From Xanthomonas campestris pv. campestris str. ATCC 33913 (GTDB lineage: Bacteria > Pseudomonadota > Gammaproteobacteria > Xanthomonadales > Xanthomonadaceae), in contig NC_003902.1 in NCBI RefSeq assembly GCF_000007145.1, positions 3,086,497 through 3,118,496 of the forward strand: DNA of 32,000 nt, written 5' to 3'. The notes beneath the pieces are model-generated. The model was not told the origin of the DNA. It saw only the letters and a program-made list of their open reading frames with translations, and did no database searches. The position numbers and the translations under genes are program-made. Shown here one piece after another: positions 2,985-30,692 of this stretch. Every line of letters starts with the position of its first letter. The first letter of the stretch is position 1.

Positions 2985-3110
2985 CTGCCGTTGCAATTCC
3001 CCATTCCCGATTCCCGATTCCCCTCTGCTGAACCGGCAAACCGCAACCGCCCAACGCACCGCTCTGCGCCCCTGCCGTTGCGATTCCCCACTCCCGATTC
3101 CCGATTCCCG
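2985..3110. repeat. Two direct copies of a ~39-bp module ending in GATTCCC/GGGAATC heptamer arrays
   Basis: CTGCCGTTGCAATTCCCCATTCCCGATTCCCGATTCCCC (2985-3024) and CTGCCGTTGCGATTCCCCACTCCCGATTCCCGATTCCC (3072-3110). An 8-bp hairpin GCAACGGC/GCCGTTGC (2972-2994) abuts copy 1. The module fills the convergent yjgA/tldD gap. Confidence 0.85.
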
Positions 3111-9318: not shown

Positions 9319-9487
9319 TAACGGCGGGGAATCGGGAGTCGGGAGTCGGGAGTCGTAAGAGCACGCAGCGCCCCGTACGCACGATCATCCGTTCGCGCAC
9401 TCCCCCATTCTAAGGCCGTTAACAGTATCCCGCAGAGAGCCTTTCGCTCTTCCCCCATTCCCGATTCCCGACTCTCCATTCCCTGCC
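9319..9487. repeat. Composite inverted heptamer-array element filling the rng-yhdP spacer
   Basis: GGGGAATCGGGAGTCGGGAGTCGGGAGTCG (9326-9355) faces the opposite-orientation CCCCCATTCCCGATTCCCGACTCTCCATTCCC (about 9451-9483). An inner inverted pair is TTAACGGC (9318-9325) / GCCGTTAA (9414-9421). Confidence 0.8.
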
Positions 9488-16666: not shown

Positions 16667-17566
16667 TCAGCTAGCCGGCGGAACGCAGCCATACAGGCCT
16701 TCTTCGGCGATCAATGCGGCAACCACCTGCGGCACCAGCTCCTGCCATTGACCACCGGCGGCAATGCGGCTGCGCACCGCGCTGGCCGATTCGCCGCGCA
16801 ACGGATGCGGCAGCCGCCATAGCCGACCGGCCGGCGCGGTGAGCAGGTCGCGCGCGTCGGTGGCCCACCGGCCCTGCACCGCCTGCGCCAGCACCGGCGC
16901 ATCGGCCAAGTCCAGCGCCGTGCCGGGGCGCGCAGCGATCACCAGATGCGCCAGCCCGAAGAGTTCGGTCCACTCATGCCAGCCGGGCAGGCCAACGAAG
17001 GCATCGGCACCCAGCAGCCAGGCGATGGGCTTGGCGGGCCCAAGCTGGGCACGCACCTCGTGCAGGGTGTCCACCGTGTAGGACGGCGCCCCGCCCTGCG
17101 CGGCGCGGCGCACCTCGCGGGTATCCAGCAGCAGCCCGGGGAGATCGGCCAGGGCCAGTTCCAGCATGCGGGTGCGCTGCGCGGCGGTGGCACCGGGCGC
17201 GGGGCGATGTGGCGGGTCTGCGGCCGGCACCAGATGCACCTGCGCGCCGAGCGCATCGCGTGCGGCGCAGGCAATGGCCAGGTGGCCGCGATGGATCGGG
17301 TCGAAGGTGCCGCCGTAGTAGAGGTGGAGCTTGGGGCGGGAATCGGGAATCGGGAATCGGGAGTCGGTATGGGACCGGGATTCGGGATTGTGGATTTGGG
17401 ATTCGGAAAGAAGCGAGTCTGACGCGGCGGCCTGCGCGTTGGTGGCTGGTGACGTTGGAGCGACGCCGGTGGGAGGTACCGGCCGTGCGCCTTGCGCTGC
17501 GGTTGGAGGCTCTCGCTCTGCGGCGCCGGCGCCCCGCTCAGCAGTTCCGGCCTGCCCCGCTGTCAC
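16667..17566 (-). CDS. nadD: Nicotinate-nucleotide adenylyltransferase NadD with an atypical ~75-residue N-terminal extension (start uncertain)
   Basis: The catalytic core begins YYGGTFDPIHRGHL. The only canonical in-frame start upstream is GTG 17566, which overlaps the holA stop as GTGA. The extension is low-complexity and is partly encoded by the heptamer array. Confidence 0.82.
   Translation of the reverse strand: MTAGQAGTAERGAGAAEREPPTAAQGARPVPPTGVAPTSPATNAQAAASDSLLSESQIHNPESRSHTDSRFPIPDSRPKLHLYYGGTFDPIHRGHLAIACAARDALGAQVHLVPAADPPHRPAPGATAAQRTRMLELALADLPGLLLDTREVRRAAQGGAPSYTVDTLHEVRAQLGPAKPIAWLLGADAFVGLPGWHEWTELFGLAHLVIAARPGTALDLADAPVLAQAVQGRWATDARDLLTAPAGRLWRLPHPLRGESASAVRSRIAAGGQWQELVPQVVAALIAEEGLYGCVPPAS
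17333..17406. repeat. GGGAATC heptamer array plus GGGATTC-type variant array
   Basis: GGGGCGGGAATCGGGAATCGGGAATCGGGAGTCGG (17333-17366), then GGGACCGGGATTCGGGATTGTGGATTTGGGATTCGG (to 17406). It lies inside the nadD long ORF. Confidence 0.85.
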
Positions 17567-25243: not shown

Positions 25244-26149
25244 ATGCTTCTGCGCACCCTCGCTTCTGCCTGCCTGCTCGCCCTGTTGGTGCCCACCGCT
25301 GCCAGCGCTGCCTACCGAAGCCCGCAGCAATTGCTCGACGCCTCGCCCGCCTCCGCATGGCGCGTCCTGGACCCCGAGCGCACGCTGTATCTGGAACTGG
25401 ACAGCGGCCGGGTGATCATCGAATTGGCTCCGCAGTTCGCGCCGGCGCATGTGGGCAACATCCGCACCCTGGCGCATGAGCGCTTCTGGGACGGGCTGAG
25501 CGTCTATCGCTCGCAGGACAATTTTGTGGTGCAGTTCGGCGACCCCGACGGCGAGACGCCGGCCAAGGCCAAATCGCTGGGATCGGCGAAAACGCATCTG
25601 CCGGCCGAATTCGAACGCGCCTCGCAGGGCCTGGATTTCCAGCGCCTGCCCGACAGCGACGGCTGGGCACCGCAGGTCGGCTTTGTCGAGGGTTTCCCGG
25701 TGGGCCGCGATCCGGCCAGCGGCAAGACCTGGCTGGCGCATTGCTACGGCACCCTGGGCGCGGGCCGCAATAACGATGAAGACAGCAGCATCGGCGCCGA
25801 GCTCTACGTGGTCACCGGTCAATCGCCTCGTCAGCTGGACCGCAACATCACCGTGGTCGGCCGCGTGGTCAAGGGCATGGAATTGTTGAGCGTGATTCCG
25901 CGCGGACCTGATCCAATGGGCTTTTACGAAGACGCCGCACAGCGCACCACGCTGCGCGCGATCCGGCTCGCCAGCGAGGTGCCGTTGCCCGAGCGCACGC
26001 CGCTGCAATTGCTGCGCACCGACAGCCAGACCTTCCGCGACGTGGCCGAAGCACGCCGCAACCGCAAGGACGATTTCTACAAGCGACCGGCCGGGCACAT
26101 CGATCTGTGCAATGTGCCGTTGCCGGTGCGGACGCCGCCTGCGGCGTGA
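25244..26149 (+). CDS. Secreted cyclophilin-type peptidyl-prolyl cis-trans isomerase (divergent)
   Basis: 301 aa. Signal peptide MLLRTLASACLLALLVPTAASA. The pattern VIIELAPQFAPAHVGNIRTLAHERFWDGLSVYRSQDNFVVQFGDP follows the cyclophilin N-terminal pattern. Confidence 0.75.
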   Translation: MLLRTLASACLLALLVPTAASAAYRSPQQLLDASPASAWRVLDPERTLYLELDSGRVIIELAPQFAPAHVGNIRTLAHERFWDGLSVYRSQDNFVVQFGDPDGETPAKAKSLGSAKTHLPAEFERASQGLDFQRLPDSDGWAPQVGFVEGFPVGRDPASGKTWLAHCYGTLGAGRNNDEDSSIGAELYVVTGQSPRQLDRNITVVGRVVKGMELLSVIPRGPDPMGFYEDAAQRTTLRAIRLASEVPLPERTPLQLLRTDSQTFRDVAEARRNRKDDFYKRPAGHIDLCNVPLPVRTPPAA

Positions 26150-26151
26150 AT

Positions 26152-26174
26152 GGGGAATCGGGAATGGGGAATCG
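26152..26174. repeat. Short GGGAATC-type heptamer array
   Basis: GGGGAATCGGGAATGGGGAATCG begins 3 nt after the cyclophilin stop codon, in the convergent gap before the EamA gene. Confidence 0.7.
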
Positions 26175-27272: not shown

Positions 27273-28265
27273 ATGCATCTGCGTCCTACCTTGCTGCCTG
27301 CACTCGGCGTCTTCGCCGCAGCCGCGCGCCACCAGAACTTCGCCCATGCGGCGGAAGAACTGCACCTCACCGCCAGCGCGGTGAGCCATCACGTGCGCAA
27401 GCTCGAGGCACTGCTCGGTGCAACCTTGTTTCAGCGGCTGCCGCGCGGCGTAATGCTCACCGCCGAAGGACGCCAGCTGGCCGATGCCGCCAGCGCGGCG
27501 CTGGCCGAGATCGCCGCGGTGGCGGGCAATCTGCACCCGCGCGAAGACGCCATCCCGCTGCGCGTGACCACGCTGCGCTCGCTGTCGTATTGCTGGTTGT
27601 TGCCGCGCCTGCCGCGGTTCTGCCGCCTGCACCCGCATATCCGCCTGGACCTGCAATCGGACCCGGCATTCTCGCGCTTCGAGGAAGGCGGGCCGGAAGT
27701 GGGCATCCGCTACGGCCAAGGCGCCTGGCCGGGGTTGACCTCGCACCACCTGATGGACGACGAACTGTTCCCGGTGGCCTCGCCCTCGTTGCCCGAAGTG
27801 GCCGCGTTGCAGACGCCGGCGCAGATTGCGCAACTGCCGCTGTTGTCGGACATGTCGCCGCAGGGCTGGCGCGACTGGTTCCGCGCGGCGCAGGTGCGCG
27901 GCACCACGCTGCCGCCGATGCACACCTTCAACGACAGCACCGATGCGATGCGCGCGGCCGTGTACGGACTGGGCGCGGTGCTGGCACGCAAGCACATTGC
28001 CCAACCGTATCTGCAGCGCTATGAGCTGGTACGCCTGCCCGGCCCGACCTTGAAGGCGCGCTACGCCTACTACATCGTGCACCCCAGCCATCGCGCGCCC
28101 AGCCCGGCGGCCACCGTGTTCATCGACTGGCTCAAACGCGAAGCACTGGACGAGCGCACGCCGATGCCGGCACTGCCCGCCGAACTGCTGGCATTGCCCA
28201 CCGGCGAGACCGCGCACGCGCCGGACAGACGGCGGCGATCGCGCCGTGCGCCGGCAACCGAGTGA
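27273..28265 (+). CDS. LysR-family transcriptional regulator (GcvA-like), divergent from the EamA transporter
   Basis: 330 aa. N-terminal wHTH LPALGVFAAAARHQNFAHAAEELHLTASAVSHHVRKLEALLG, followed by a LysR substrate-binding domain. Confidence 0.9.
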   Translation: MHLRPTLLPALGVFAAAARHQNFAHAAEELHLTASAVSHHVRKLEALLGATLFQRLPRGVMLTAEGRQLADAASAALAEIAAVAGNLHPREDAIPLRVTTLRSLSYCWLLPRLPRFCRLHPHIRLDLQSDPAFSRFEEGGPEVGIRYGQGAWPGLTSHHLMDDELFPVASPSLPEVAALQTPAQIAQLPLLSDMSPQGWRDWFRAAQVRGTTLPPMHTFNDSTDAMRAAVYGLGAVLARKHIAQPYLQRYELVRLPGPTLKARYAYYIVHPSHRAPSPAATVFIDWLKREALDERTPMPALPAELLALPTGETAHAPDRRRRSRRAPATE

Positions 28266-28476
28266 GCCTTCGCCGCAGGTAGTGCATCGCCATCTGCAAC
28301 TGCGCCGCGATGTCTCCCGTTGTGCAAGCGATCCAATCAGTCTGCCGCCCAGTGGCGCGTCAGGCGGCTGCGAAAGCAACAGTAGACGTGCACGCCAACA
28401 CGGCCTTGCACCGCACTTCCGCCTCTCCAAACAGGGACGGGCGACGCTCCCAGCTCGACCCGCCAGTAAAAATCGC

Positions 28477-28536
28477 TTGACACCTCGCACACCAAGCGAG
28501 TTAATTAGTTAATTAGCTAATTCGTTAATTAGCTAA
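28477..28536 (+). promoter_or_regulatory. Putative sigma70 promoter (perfect TTGACA) plus AT-rich tandem/palindromic operator of the arsR-family gene
   Basis: TTGACA lies at 28477-28482. Starting 17-19 bp downstream is TTAATTAG TTAATTAG CTAATTCG TTAATTAG CTAA (28501-28536), which includes the perfect palindrome AATTAGCTAATT (28511-28522). The ATG is at 28543. Confidence 0.5.
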
Positions 28537-28542
28537 GCCATC

Positions 28543-28857
28543 ATGTCGATCGATCGCATTTTCGAAGCCCTGGCATCGCGGCCACGTCGCGAGATCCTGG
28601 CCTATCTGTCGGCGCAGGAACTGACCGCTGGCCAGATCGGCGAGCGCTTTGCGATGAGTGCGCCCGCCATTTCGCGGCATCTGTCGGTGTTGTCGGCGGC
28701 TGGCCTGGTCAGCAGCGAACGGCGCGGCCAGTTCGTGGTGTACCGGCTGACCCCGCACAACATGGTCAACACGCTCAGCGGTTTCGCCTTCGAGGTCTGC
28801 CCCAAGGCCGGTCCGTTGCAACGCGAATCGCGCAAGCTGGCCAAGAAACCGCGCTGA
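28543..28857 (+). CDS. ArsR/SmtB-family winged-helix transcriptional regulator (no metal-site motifs)
   Basis: 104 aa. IFEALASRPRREILAYLSAQELTAGQIGERFAMSAPAISRHLSVLSAAGLV is the ArsR HTH_5/HTH_20 pattern. It has a single Cys and no CXC in helix 3. Confidence 0.88.
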   Translation: MSIDRIFEALASRPRREILAYLSAQELTAGQIGERFAMSAPAISRHLSVLSAAGLVSSERRGQFVVYRLTPHNMVNTLSGFAFEVCPKAGPLQRESRKLAKKPR

Positions 28858-28890
28858 ATTCCGCTCTTCGTCATGACTGCAAGGATTGCC

Positions 28891-30309
28891 ATGTACCCAC
28901 AACAGGTTGTTGCCGAAGCGAGCTTCCCCCGCGTGTTGCTGCCCTCCTGCAGCGGCGGGCGGCCGGTGGAAGTGATCCTGATCGCCCAGCTGGATCCAGG
29001 CGCCGGCGACGGTCTGATCGCGCAGGCCGGCCTGCGGCAACAGCAGCACCCGGCCCATCACGCCGCACTGGACGAGCCATCGGCGCAGCTGTCGGCACCG
29101 GACTTCCAGCTGGGCGACCCGGCCTCGCTGTTCTCGTTTTCGGTCGGCCCGCAGGGGCACCCGTTCCACTGCCATGCCGGCAACCGCGTGTTCACTGCGG
29201 TGACCGGCAGCGGCGGCGCGCAGTTGCGGTTCTCCACCGCTTCGGCGCAGCAGATTGCGCAGGATCCGCAGGCCTTCCTGCACGCGCTGCGCCATGTGGA
29301 CCTGCCCGGCGACAGCCTGTTCACGGTGCGCTTTGGCGGTGGCACCTGGCATCAGTTCGCGCCGGCGCGCGGCAGCGCGAGCCATTCGGCGTTGTTCGCC
29401 CTGTCCTGCCATCCCGATGAAGCCGCGGGCGCGCTGGACAGCGCACAGCAGGCGTTGGTCAGCAGTGGCCAGGCCACCATCGCCAGCCTCACCGAGCTGC
29501 TGCCGGAGGCGGTCACCGCATTGCTGGAATCGGACCAGTTCCGTGCCAGCGAGGTGCCGACCACCGCGCTGTCCTTCAACGTCAGACCACAGAGCTGGCA
29601 GCAGCGTGCGTGCGCCCGTGCGCGGCGCTGGGCCGGTCGCCTGCGCCAGGCCCTGGCGCTGACGCAACGTGGCGGCTTCGTGGCCACCAGTGCGCCGGCA
29701 CCGCGTGTGCGCGCACTGCCCACCGTGGCCGACGATGCGCTGCTGCACGCGCACTTCAGCGCGCCGATGCACTACCAGGACAGCCATCAGGTGCAACTGG
29801 ATACGCGCCAGTTGCGCAGCGACAGGCTGCCGGAGCTGATGTGCGACCTGCTGCAGGCCTTCATCGACCAGCCACCGAGCGGGGTGAGCGGATTGATGCG
29901 GCTGCGCAACCTGATGGTCAGACCGCTGGGGCTGCGCACCTCGCCGCTGGGTTGCCCGGTGTCATCGTTACTGGACCCGCATGCAGCGCAGCGGTTCGCC
30001 GGCCGTTTCCCGGTGCTGGCCCACCGCAGCGATGCCGATGGCCGGCAGGTGCAGGTGCTGCTGGGCGCGGACGACAAACACGTGCGTTTCCGCTCGGCGA
30101 TCAGCGTGCGCCGTACCGGTGAACACACGCTCGCGGTGACCATGGCTACGCAGGTGCATTGCCGCAACCTGTTCGGGCACCTGTACATGGCGGCGATCCA
30201 CCGCACCCATCGTCACTACATCATGCCGGCCATGCTCGGCAGCGCCGCACGGCAGGTGCTGGAGACGGCGCAGCACGCGCAGGCAAGCTGGCGCCCGCAG
30301 CCGGCATGA
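28891..30309 (+). CDS. Two-domain protein: N-terminal cupin-like domain fused to a C-terminal DUF2867 domain
   Basis: 472 aa from ATG 28891, with AAGGA at 28881-28885 (alternative ATG 28873). The N-terminal half has HCH-x3-R-x6-G and GGGTWHQF cupin-like motifs. The C-terminal half has LMRLRNLMVRPLGLRT, FPVL, LGADDKHVRFRSAISV and HRHYIMPAMLG, which match DUF2867 as I recall it. Confidence 0.7.
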   Translation: MYPQQVVAEASFPRVLLPSCSGGRPVEVILIAQLDPGAGDGLIAQAGLRQQQHPAHHAALDEPSAQLSAPDFQLGDPASLFSFSVGPQGHPFHCHAGNRVFTAVTGSGGAQLRFSTASAQQIAQDPQAFLHALRHVDLPGDSLFTVRFGGGTWHQFAPARGSASHSALFALSCHPDEAAGALDSAQQALVSSGQATIASLTELLPEAVTALLESDQFRASEVPTTALSFNVRPQSWQQRACARARRWAGRLRQALALTQRGGFVATSAPAPRVRALPTVADDALLHAHFSAPMHYQDSHQVQLDTRQLRSDRLPELMCDLLQAFIDQPPSGVSGLMRLRNLMVRPLGLRTSPLGCPVSSLLDPHAAQRFAGRFPVLAHRSDADGRQVQVLLGADDKHVRFRSAISVRRTGEHTLAVTMATQVHCRNLFGHLYMAAIHRTHRHYIMPAMLGSAARQVLETAQHAQASWRPQPA

Positions 30310-30325
30310 AACGCACGACGCGGAG

Positions 30326-30358
30326 GCGGCAGGCCATCACCTTGCCTTTGCCTGCCGC
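30326..30358 (+). other. Hairpin between the cupin-DUF2867 gene and the acidic-protein gene
   Basis: Perfect 9-bp stem GCGGCAGGC / GCCTGCCGC with a 15-nt loop. Weak T content downstream; a possible attenuator or terminator. Confidence 0.35.
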
Positions 30359-30398
30359 TACCTAGGCTTTGCGTTCCCACCACTCAGGACCAACGCCC

Positions 30399-30692
30399 AT
30401 GCCGACTCTTCGCATGCGTATCACCGGCACCGACGACGATGCCCGCGCCATTGGCAATCTGTTGCAGAGCATCGAAGGCATCGAGCACGTCGAGGAAGTC
30501 GACGATCTGATGCCGCACCTGGACGATGACGACTCCAGTTCGGCAGGTCTGTCCGACGACGAAGGTCCGGGCACGCACGAATTCGAAGTGGAAGCCGGCA
30601 ACGAATCCACCGCGCAAAAGGTGCGCGACGCCGTGCAGGAACTGGCGCTGCAGCTGGATGTCTTCATTGAATTCGAGGTCGACGAGGGCTAA
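30399..30692 (+). CDS. Small, highly acidic hypothetical protein with internal duplication
   Basis: 97 aa from ATG 30399 (AGGA 9 nt upstream; the track ORF begins at TTG 30369). Good GC3 bias. By hand count, 27 Asp/Glu versus 5 Arg/Lys. Confidence 0.6.
   Translation: MPTLRMRITGTDDDARAIGNLLQSIEGIEHVEEVDDLMPHLDDDDSSSAGLSDDEGPGTHEFEVEAGNESTAQKVRDAVQELALQLDVFIEFEVDEG

Follow-up and report, generated by a model that had tools for sequence, protein, structure and literature searches.

The window analysed here, a 32,000-nucleotide (nt) stretch of the Xanthomonas campestris pv. campestris ATCC 33913 genome, carries a 36-bp AT-rich block between a -35 hexamer and the start codon of a gene for a small ArsR/SmtB-family regulator. 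We conclude that this block is of natural origin and represents a deeply conserved control site within the promoter that serves an uncharacterised ArsR-type operon. It is a well-conserved cis-element of a familiar, ordinary kind, and it is the attached regulator and its partner gene that are uncharacterised. Conservation at the same place across 80 loci is the strongest evidence that the block is beyond chance. We consider it probable that the block serves as the autorepressor operator of the two-gene operon, where it would overlap the -10 box and the transcription start. The features that carry this argument are the following, with motif coordinates taken from a position weight matrix (PWM) where indicated.

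28477..28482, + strand: TTGACA, the -35 hexamer of the arsR-type operon promoter (conserved geometry)
28500..28505, + strand: GTTAAT, the predicted -10 hexamer after a 17-nt spacer, formed with the first bases of the AT-rich block (conserved geometry only)
28501-28536: the AT-rich block, TTAATTAG TTAATTAG CTAATTCG TTAATTAG CTAA (read directly)
28508..28537, + strand: conserved 30-bp element, the proposed operator, matching the order-wide motif AATATTTAACTAATACGTTAATTAATTAAT (PWM from 80 loci)
28513..28528, centre 28520/28521: core dyad 1, TTAGC-TAATTC-GTTAA, consensus TTARC-N6-GTTAA (PWM complementarity)
28513..28536, centre 28524/28525: nested dyad 2, TTAGCTAATT-CGTT-AATTAGCTAA, a 10-4-10 arrangement (repeat finder and PWM)
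28543..28857, + strand: winged helix-turn-helix (HTH) regulator of the ArsR/SmtB family, 104 amino acids (aa), without a Shine-Dalgarno sequence (Pfam, NCBIfam)

Reading the window directly returned every coordinate given by an earlier, sequence-only reading of this DNA. TTGACA occupies 28477-28482 and is followed by 18 nt and then the block, and 6 nt separate the end of the block from the ATG at 28543. By count the block holds 7 G/C in 36 positions; it is the lowest-GC 36-mer of the window, whose overall GC content is 0.673, and all 36-mers with at most 10 G/C start at 28493-28509. Stops occur in all six frames of the block, and no Shine-Dalgarno sequence precedes the ATG, since GGAG, GAGG, AGGA and AAGG are all absent from the preceding 20 nt. 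The palindrome AATTAGCTAATT at 28511-28522 and the dyad TTAGCTAA at 28529-28536 are likewise as that reading had placed them. The unit TTAATTAG occurs three times in the window, each time within the block, with about 1.3 matches at no more than one mismatch expected window-wide. Tandem Repeats Finder described the block with period 8 (4.8 copies, score 55) and with period 16 (2.2 copies, 94% matches, score 63), and the repeat finder returned a perfect 10-4-10 inverted repeat (28513-22 / 28527-36) together with a 16+16 dyad (28505-20 / 28521-36) that is 81% complementary.

To collect orthologous loci, genomes (one for each species) were scanned with a regulator alignment, which yielded 80 loci from Xanthomonas, Stenotrophomonas, Pseudoxanthomonas, Dyella, Rhodanobacter, Luteimonas, Luteibacter and related metagenome bins. 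All 80 share one upstream layout: TTGAC(A), about 17-18 nt, an AT-rich element of about 26-30 bp, 4-9 nt, and the ATG. The comparison with related genomes that the sequence-only reading had proposed thus found the block kept in every syntenic relative that has the operon (80 of 80). A scan of 522 kb (the window and the 80 loci, both strands, 26-bp matrix) returned no second site of at least 25 bits, and the same scan placed no element before either of the neighbouring LysR and EamA genes.

The very regular sequence and the six-frame stops had also led the sequence-only reading to consider an engineered all-frame stop linker or an insertion scar, and the block does resemble commercial TTAATTAATTAA-type terminator linkers. 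This reading, which extends to a cloning scar or a transposon-excision footprint, is refuted by the presence of the element in 80 of 80 wild relatives, and we give it a negligible chance. The element has diverged naturally among 80 genomes from many genera and among metagenome bins, and it is identical in the independently sequenced X. campestris pv. campestris strain 8004, which matches a 3315-bp stretch of the window throughout (CP000050.1). Searches of vector, plasmid and phage sequences with the block returned short AT-rich chance matches only (E at least 0.2), and a similar 24-mer in a repeat family of one metagenome sample, Ga0210059, sits in contigs of 35-42% GC with unrelated flanks.

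The promoter geometry around the block is conserved as well. TTGAC lies upstream of the element in 79 of 81 sequences, the exceptions being L022 and L030, and the full hexamer reads TTGACA in 53, TTGACG in 19, TTGACT in 5 and TTGACC in 4. The spacer between the -35 and -10 hexamers measures 16-19 nt, mainly 17-18 nt, and this conserved spacing would put the -10 hexamer at the very start of the element, in its first six bases. Dyella, Rhodanobacter and Pseudoxanthomonas have TATATT or GATATT as the predicted -10 hexamer; Xanthomonas has ATTAAT or GTTAAT. From the position of the -10 hexamer, transcription is predicted to start near 28512. The predicted mRNA leader is short and A/U-rich, with a median of 23 nt across the sequences and 31 nt in this strain; it lacks a Shine-Dalgarno sequence, and a Shine-Dalgarno-like motif appears in the last 20 nt before the ATG in none of the 81 sequences.

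Two observations accompany this promoter region. In L022 and L030, both from Pseudoxanthomonas, the sole TTGAC lies about 45 nt before the ATG at 3001 and abuts or overlaps the element (TTGACTTAAC...), a geometry that would put the operator between the -35 and -10 hexamers and give a predicted leader of about 1 nt, suggesting a near-leaderless mRNA. In the window, an inverted repeat (TCGCTTG...CAAGCGA, 28473-28499) encloses the -35 hexamer and the promoter spacer; in the terminator scan it resembles, on the minus strand, a terminator with a TTTTTAC tail, and a shorter CTTGA...TCAAG form is kept in several other Xanthomonas species.

The anatomy of the element was resolved with a PWM iteratively refined from the 80 loci; adding 28507 to a motif position gives its window coordinate. 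At least 14 positions are nearly invariant: T6 T7 A8, C10, A12, T14, T18 T19 A20 A21, T23 and T27 A28 A29. Within the window the top-scoring 26-mer, 28511-28536, reaches 45.6 bits; the known orthologous sites score 32-54 bits. An imperfect inverted repeat of about 20-30 bp precedes the regulator's own gene in 80 of 80 loci. The centre of dyad 1 gave a complementarity of 0.66, the highest among all centres tested; its TTA/TAA pairs are invariant, and C10:G17 is paired in 52 of 66 distinct sites. Its half-site centres lie about 11 bp apart, one helical turn, a spacing that would suit a winged-helix dimer in successive major grooves. Dyad 2 is perfect in Xanthomonas, includes the conserved downstream YTAA (28533-28536), and reads TTARCnAAT-N6-ATTnnYTAA across loci with a complementarity of 0.61. 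Against these two peaks, 4 bp apart, the other symmetry centres reached only 0.12-0.5.

A single simple palindrome was rejected as a description of the element, because the two nested centres score almost alike. The small palindromes AATTAGCTAATT and TTAGCTAA, which the sequence-only reading had noted, are present but confined to Xanthomonas. Their origin is the arm TTAGCTAA, a palindrome in its own right, and the order-wide core is instead TTARC-N6-GTTAA with the downstream YTAA.

Spacing and orientation add to this picture. Among 70 forward-oriented loci, the distance from the -35 hexamer to the dyad centre is 30-32 nt in 54, and that from the dyad centre to the ATG is 22 nt in 42. X. chitinilytica and nine Stenotrophomonas loci carry the element reverse-complemented, the opposite strand scoring clearly better. 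In those nine Stenotrophomonas loci the distance from the -35 hexamer to the ATG is still 53 nt, whereas the dyad 1 centre lies 35 nt after the -35 hexamer (versus 30-32) and 18 nt before the ATG (versus 22). A constant span with a shifted centre indicates that the whole asymmetric element has been flipped within a fixed frame. Such a flip is tolerable for a protein-binding dyad; it is not tolerable for a promoter element or an RNA signal.

This bears directly on the possibility that the block acts in RNA, as a hairpin of the 5'-untranslated region or an A/U-rich ribosome landing pad that stands in for the absent Shine-Dalgarno sequence, controlling translation or mRNA stability and not transcription. 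The uniform lack of a Shine-Dalgarno sequence and the constant 4-9 nt between element end and ATG would fit such a role. In Xanthomonas a 10-bp hairpin has a minimum free energy (MFE) of -11.2 kcal/mol and a z-score of -2.4 from the predicted start, the whole block reaches an MFE of -14.8 kcal/mol (z -3.4), and the allele with two TTAATTAG copies puts the entire hairpin inside the predicted transcript. In most species, however, the start predicted from the conserved -35/-10 geometry falls inside the left arm, so that the hairpin would be unable to form, and neither Dyella (L028, z +1.2) nor Stenotrophomonas (L034, z -0.7) has a stable leader structure. The conservation is base-specific (TTA, C, GTTAA, TAA) and not pair-preserving, both orientations occur and alter the RNA sequence, and a related site in Chloroflexota has a longer downstream leader that is not A/U-rich. 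The RNA hairpin was rejected as a conserved feature, there being no stable fold outside Xanthomonas, and we regard an RNA role for the block as unlikely. An A/U-rich leader may still aid initiation without a Shine-Dalgarno sequence, as a secondary consequence compatible with an operator.

An operator overlapping the arsR-family promoter, which the sequence-only reading had put forward, accords with conservation across at least seven genera, a fixed distance from the -35 hexamer, dyad symmetry with co-variation at some arm positions, and use in either orientation. It is further favoured by the restriction of the element to the arsR-type gene in the 522 kb scanned and by an invariant recognition helix in the regulator, as well as by the sites of this type before distant ArsR-type genes and the Rv2034 precedent, both described below. 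Under this model the operator would be part of a sigma-70-type promoter. A dimer of the 104-aa winged-helix protein would bind the dyad and cover the -10 box together with the start site and the beginning of the transcribed region, thereby repressing its own operon in the manner of ArsR/SmtB-family repressors, Rv2034 of Mycobacterium tuberculosis among them. Release would follow a signal that is probably not a metal, sensed either directly or through the co-transcribed cupin-DUF2867 protein.

Several points weigh against the operator model. The promoter scan, which accepts only -10 hexamers with A at position 2, calls no promoter here; the Xanthomonas hexamers (GTTAAT/ATTAAT) are without this usual A, and the start site is a geometric prediction. 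The two nested dyads fit about equally well and would allow different half-sites and dimer numbers. The pairing counts, among them those for positions 9 and 26 of dyad 2, which co-vary (G:C in 17, A:T in 36 and non-complementary in 13 of 66 sites), are confounded by shared ancestry. Literature searches by B100 locus tag, on DUF2867 together with ArsR and on ArsR autoregulation in X. campestris returned nothing relevant. The inducing signal and the role of the partner protein are speculative, and the sequence alone would also be compatible with a different factor at the site. Our confidence in the operator is fair rather than full because binding, start site and signal are all inferred.

Such a different factor could be the neighbouring LysR-type regulator (27273-28265) or an AT-preferring nucleoid-associated protein. 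In Xanthomonas the gene immediately before the operon is the LysR gene, 32 of 80 loci have a LysR-EamA pair close to the operon, LysR-type sites are also AT-rich interrupted dyads, and the block forms an AT island within GC-rich DNA. Yet the LysR-EamA pair is absent from 48 of 80 loci and lies on either side where present, while the element always accompanies the arsR-type gene at a fixed distance. The Chloroflexota sites precede ArsR-type genes, and their called neighbours are not LysR; the base-specific conservation is too strict for a composition-driven nucleoid protein. We judge binding by another protein to be slightly less probable even than an RNA role.

The remaining features of the operon and its surroundings are listed below.

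27273-28265: LysR-type regulator, directly upstream of the operon in Xanthomonas
28891..30309, + strand: cupin-DUF2867 protein, 472 aa, predicted to be co-transcribed (Pfam, open reading frame, AlphaFold2)
30350..30377, + strand: terminator-like hairpin with a T-rich tail after the second gene (simple terminator scan, consensus match only)

The X. campestris pv. campestris protein AAY48557.1 / AAM41900.1 matches the regulator with 100% identity. It matches Pfam HTH_5 at 45.4 bits (cut-off 22, E 7.5e-12), Pfam HTH_20 at 42.7 bits (cut-off 27) and the NCBIfam model NF033788 HTH_metalloreg at 80.1 bits (cut-off 55), and its 31 relatives in the PDB are all of the ArsR family, demonstrating membership of the ArsR/SmtB family. 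Orthologues are 75-98% identical across seven genera. In an alignment of 13 sequences the recognition helix at residues 40-47 (APAISRHL) is invariant, and the alignment showed neither a cysteine in the alpha3 region, as an alpha3/alpha3N Cys-X-Cys site would need, nor a conserved alpha5 His/Asp/Glu pattern of the Asp-X-His-X10-His-X2-Glu/His kind. The sole cysteine of the regulator is the invariant Cys86, in FEVCP. With these metal sites absent, the regulator has the family fold and is not a canonical metal sensor.

The cupin-DUF2867 gene lies directly downstream of the regulator in 79 of 80 loci, with an identity of 45-74% versus 75-98% for the regulator. An AAGGA Shine-Dalgarno sequence at 28881-85, 5 nt before the ATG at 28891, marks the likely start. 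Annotations of this start are ambiguous (28873-28893): the mechanical open reading frame begins at the ATG at 28873 and encodes 478 aa, as annotated in B100, and other public annotations use a 444-aa form. Pfam recognises the DUF2867 domain in the C-terminal half (E 3.7e-18). The AlphaFold2 model has a mean predicted local distance difference test score (pLDDT) of 91.7, and a fold search matched its N-terminal half to cupin metalloenzymes such as quercetinase, oxalate decarboxylase and DddK; a PDB sequence search with the protein gave no match, the cupin half being seen by fold search only. His84, His87, His89 and His148 are invariant (472-aa numbering; H90, H93, H95 and H154 as alignment columns). 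The hairpin at 30350..30377 is likely the end of the two-gene operon.

In the window the regulator is preceded by the LysR regulator and a divergent EamA transporter. Where this pair lies within 3 kb of arsR-DUF2867 (the 32 loci mentioned above), it is upstream in Xanthomonas and in some Stenotrophomonas and Pseudoxanthomonas, and downstream in many Pseudoxanthomonas. The loose, recurrent linkage may reflect a shared function. Downstream of the operon, a very acidic 107-aa open reading frame (30369-30692) has no Pfam match; the B100 annotation has a 97-aa product at this position.

Classical ArsR/SmtB operators, such as those of SmtB and CzrA, are AT-rich 12-2-12 imperfect inverted repeats of about 26 bp that overlap the promoter of an autoregulated operon at -10/+1. 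The Xanthomonas system resembles them in protein family and in having an AT-rich imperfect dyad of about 26 bp, predicted to lie at -10/+1, and differs in lacking the alpha3 Cys-X-Cys and alpha5 Asp/His sites and in its half-site sequence. According to a recent preprint, ArsR clusters show no cross-talk at their operators (bioRxiv 10.64898/2026.05.15.721447).

A parallel in layout is Rv2034 of Mycobacterium tuberculosis, an ArsR-like autorepressor of the Rv2034-Rv2036 operon in which Rv2035 has a polyketide_cyc2/SRPBCC domain; its palindrome, CCGTAAGT-N4-ACTTACGG, is protected from -30 to +3 in a DNase I footprint (PMC3338718). Both systems have a small ArsR-family protein without a classical metal site, encoded first in an operon before a ligand-binding-type gene, and a palindromic operator (a proposed one in Xanthomonas) of about 20-24 bp, with inverted repeats 4 bp apart, over the promoter. 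The operator sequences are unrelated, AT-rich TTAGCTAATT-CGTT-AATTAGCTAA here versus the GC-rich mycobacterial palindrome, and the partner here is a 472-aa cupin-DUF2867 fusion versus a small SRPBCC protein. Binding is experimental for Rv2034 and inferred for the Xanthomonas regulator.

By sequence, the closest solved structure is that of SrnR from Streptomyces griseus (7P6F; E 3.4e-15, residues 6-92), in a match that spans the ISRHL recognition helix and the C-terminal VCP motif with its single conserved cysteine. SrnR depends on the partner SrnQ, encoded adjacently (PMC7055735, PMC11672702). The SrnR/SrnQ pair is nickel-responsive and controls sodF, whereas neither metal sensing nor a regulator-partner complex is evidenced for the Xanthomonas pair, and SrnQ is a small protein without recognised similarity, in contrast to the cupin-DUF2867 protein.

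Other homologues of the regulator include the non-metal ArsR-family regulators HlyU and NolR (E 3e-7 and 3e-6), which act on other genes, either from a distance or as activators, and have no DUF2867 partner gene. The NolR consensus, (A/T)TTAG-N9-A(T/A) (PMC12445080), shares the word TTAG with the Xanthomonas arms; a fit to it was rejected, as ATTAG at 28512-16 and N9 are followed by TA and not by A(T/A). SdpR of the Bacillus subtilis sdpRI operon, a non-metal ArsR-type autorepressor encoded by the first operon gene, represents the top NCBIfam subfamily beside the generic model. Assignment to it was also rejected: NF033789 scored 80.2 bits against a cut-off of 100, and the neighbour is a soluble cupin-DUF2867 protein and not an SdpI-like membrane protein.

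The four-unit 8-bp tandem emphasised by the sequence-only reading does exist in the window, but as a conserved feature it fails, since its copy number is partly strain-specific. Comparison of alleles distinguished the following.

28501..28508, + strand: strain-specific extra TTAATTAG unit, an 8-bp tandem duplication (allele comparison)
28503..28528: weaker secondary site created by the duplication at the ancestral promoter-proximal position (PWM)
One TTAATTAG copy: 16 X. campestris loci (L081-L090, L093-L096, L099 and B100, L237)
Two TTAATTAG copies: the window and strain 8004 (L091)
Three TTAATTAG copies: HG752432.1 (L092)

The extra copy can be assigned to either 28501-08 or 28509-16. An 8-bp gap is the sole difference between L092 and the window across 3315 bp, B100 differs from the window by four substitutions and an 8-bp gap, and other Xanthomonas species have cATTAATTAGCTAATTCGTTAATTAGCTAA at this position. 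The ancestral element has one TTAATTAG before GCTAATTCGTTAATTAGCTAA, and the duplication in the window is recent and restricted to part of X. campestris pv. campestris. It falls between the promoter and the core dyad and regenerates the GTTAAT hexamer. By PWM, the secondary site scores 33.3 bits on the + strand (28503..28528) and 41.5 bits on the - strand at 28505-28530. The multi-site operator suggested by the sequence-only reading therefore has some basis in the overlapping sites of this allele, although it is not the conserved state.

Modelled alleles with one, two and three copies clarify the effect of the repeat. Every added unit shifts the 45.6-bit site 8 bp downstream and recreates a site of 33-39 bits, 21 nt past the -35 hexamer (39 bits in the three-copy allele). 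In the proposed mechanism, slippage duplication of the 8-bp unit would move the best site, counted from the predicted start, from about -12..+14 to about -4..+22 and leave a weaker second site at the old position. As a matter of speculation, the perfect hairpin within the predicted transcript of the two-copy allele could affect the mRNA.

Such variation among close relatives could mean that the repeat is a phase-variable contingency switch, in which gain or loss of TTAATTAG would tune or toggle the operon from one X. campestris lineage to another. Near-identical strains do carry one, two or three copies, the two- and three-copy alleles being otherwise identical over the 3315 bp, and each unit lengthens the leader and moves the strongest site 8 bp along the promoter, roughly three quarters of a helical turn. 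Set against this, the range of one to three copies is far below that of known contingency loci, and 15 of 16 other X. campestris loci and all other species are single-copy. Every allele restores the -10 hexamer and keeps a usable site where the ancestral one lay, and the change may therefore be nearly neutral. We consider a dedicated switch improbable, on a par with an RNA role.

The site type also extends beyond Xanthomonadales. A metagenome scan with TTARCNAATNNGTTAATTNNNTAA listed at least 80 loci, mostly in low-GC contigs, comprising chance matches and one dispersed repeat family; 7 of the 80 matches listed had a GC content of at least 0.59. Five GC-rich matches among those listed have the site directly upstream of a regulator orthologue. 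In another (L157) it precedes a distant ArsR-type gene followed by an AHSA1/SRPBCC gene, and the remaining one (L152), with no ArsR-type gene beside it, looks like a chance match. In Promineifilum and Anaerolineae (Chloroflexota), homologues of the L157 regulator all have TTGACA-17-TACTAT followed by TTAACTAATTAGTTAATTAA or TTAGCTAATTAGTTAACTAGTTAA. The dyad 1 core also precedes distant ArsR-type genes of Chloroflexota, in ArsR-AHSA1 operons, whose ArsR proteins share 44% identity with the Xanthomonas regulator over 63 aa only. In a contig of 43% GC (L123, 6014-7161), a gene for a 369-aa protein with DUF5937 fused to a C-terminal ArsR-type HTH has the promoter TTGACA-17-ATAATA and then TTAGTTAATTAACAAATTAGTTAA, the same site type as in the window.

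These sites allow a broader and tentative proposal, which we hold to be possible though doubtful: a cross-phylum operator code, TTA(A/G)Y-N6-GTTAA, read by an uncharacterised ArsR subfamily with a P-A/S-I/V-S-R/K-H-L helix. The partners would be AHSA1/SRPBCC proteins in Chloroflexota, the cupin-DUF2867 protein here and a fused DUF5937 domain elsewhere, and by analogy with SrnQ and SrnR the partner, not the repressor, would sense the signal, with 8-bp slippage retuning the circuit. If true, operator slippage would give X. campestris lineages a heritable retuning of this circuit. The near-identical Chloroflexota site hints at a common recognition code of a large non-metal ArsR subfamily, which would aid regulon prediction.

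The dispersed repeat family recovered by the same scan, from metagenome sample Ga0210059, is a separate matter. Its copies often lie at contig ends and carry TTAGCTAATTAGTTAATTAATTAA within conserved flanks (...tatttgactaa / tttgtttattttagatcataacttttgaacc...), resembling the block by the 24-mer only. The loci are L104, L107, L111, L112, L115, L121, L122, L124, L126, L127, L129, L134, L137, L149, L161, L164, L166, L167, L172-L174, L176 and L177. The family probably represents mobile or satellite DNA from an unrelated AT-rich organism.

The analysis provides a concrete, testable model of operator and promoter for an uncharacterised regulator. Few small transcription factors of Xanthomonadales are as conserved as this one (75-98% identity across genera), and the same model covers its linked cupin-DUF2867 partner of uncharacterised function. 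The natural one-, two- and three-copy alleles in otherwise near-identical X. campestris form a ready allelic series for relating operator position to repression. These findings extend a well-known regulatory design and overturn no current understanding.

Other repeats in the window lie apart from the operon. Heptamer tandem arrays (ATTCCCC, CGATTCC, GGGAGTC, CCCCATT, CGGGATT, GAATCGG) occur at six places and on both strands (2996-3023, 3081-3110, 9327-9355, 9453-9483, 17337-17406 and 26148-26174), one with up to 10.4 copies, and look like a dispersed heptamer-repeat family. A 54-bp tandem repeat spans 2177-2329, with 2.8 copies and 78% matches.

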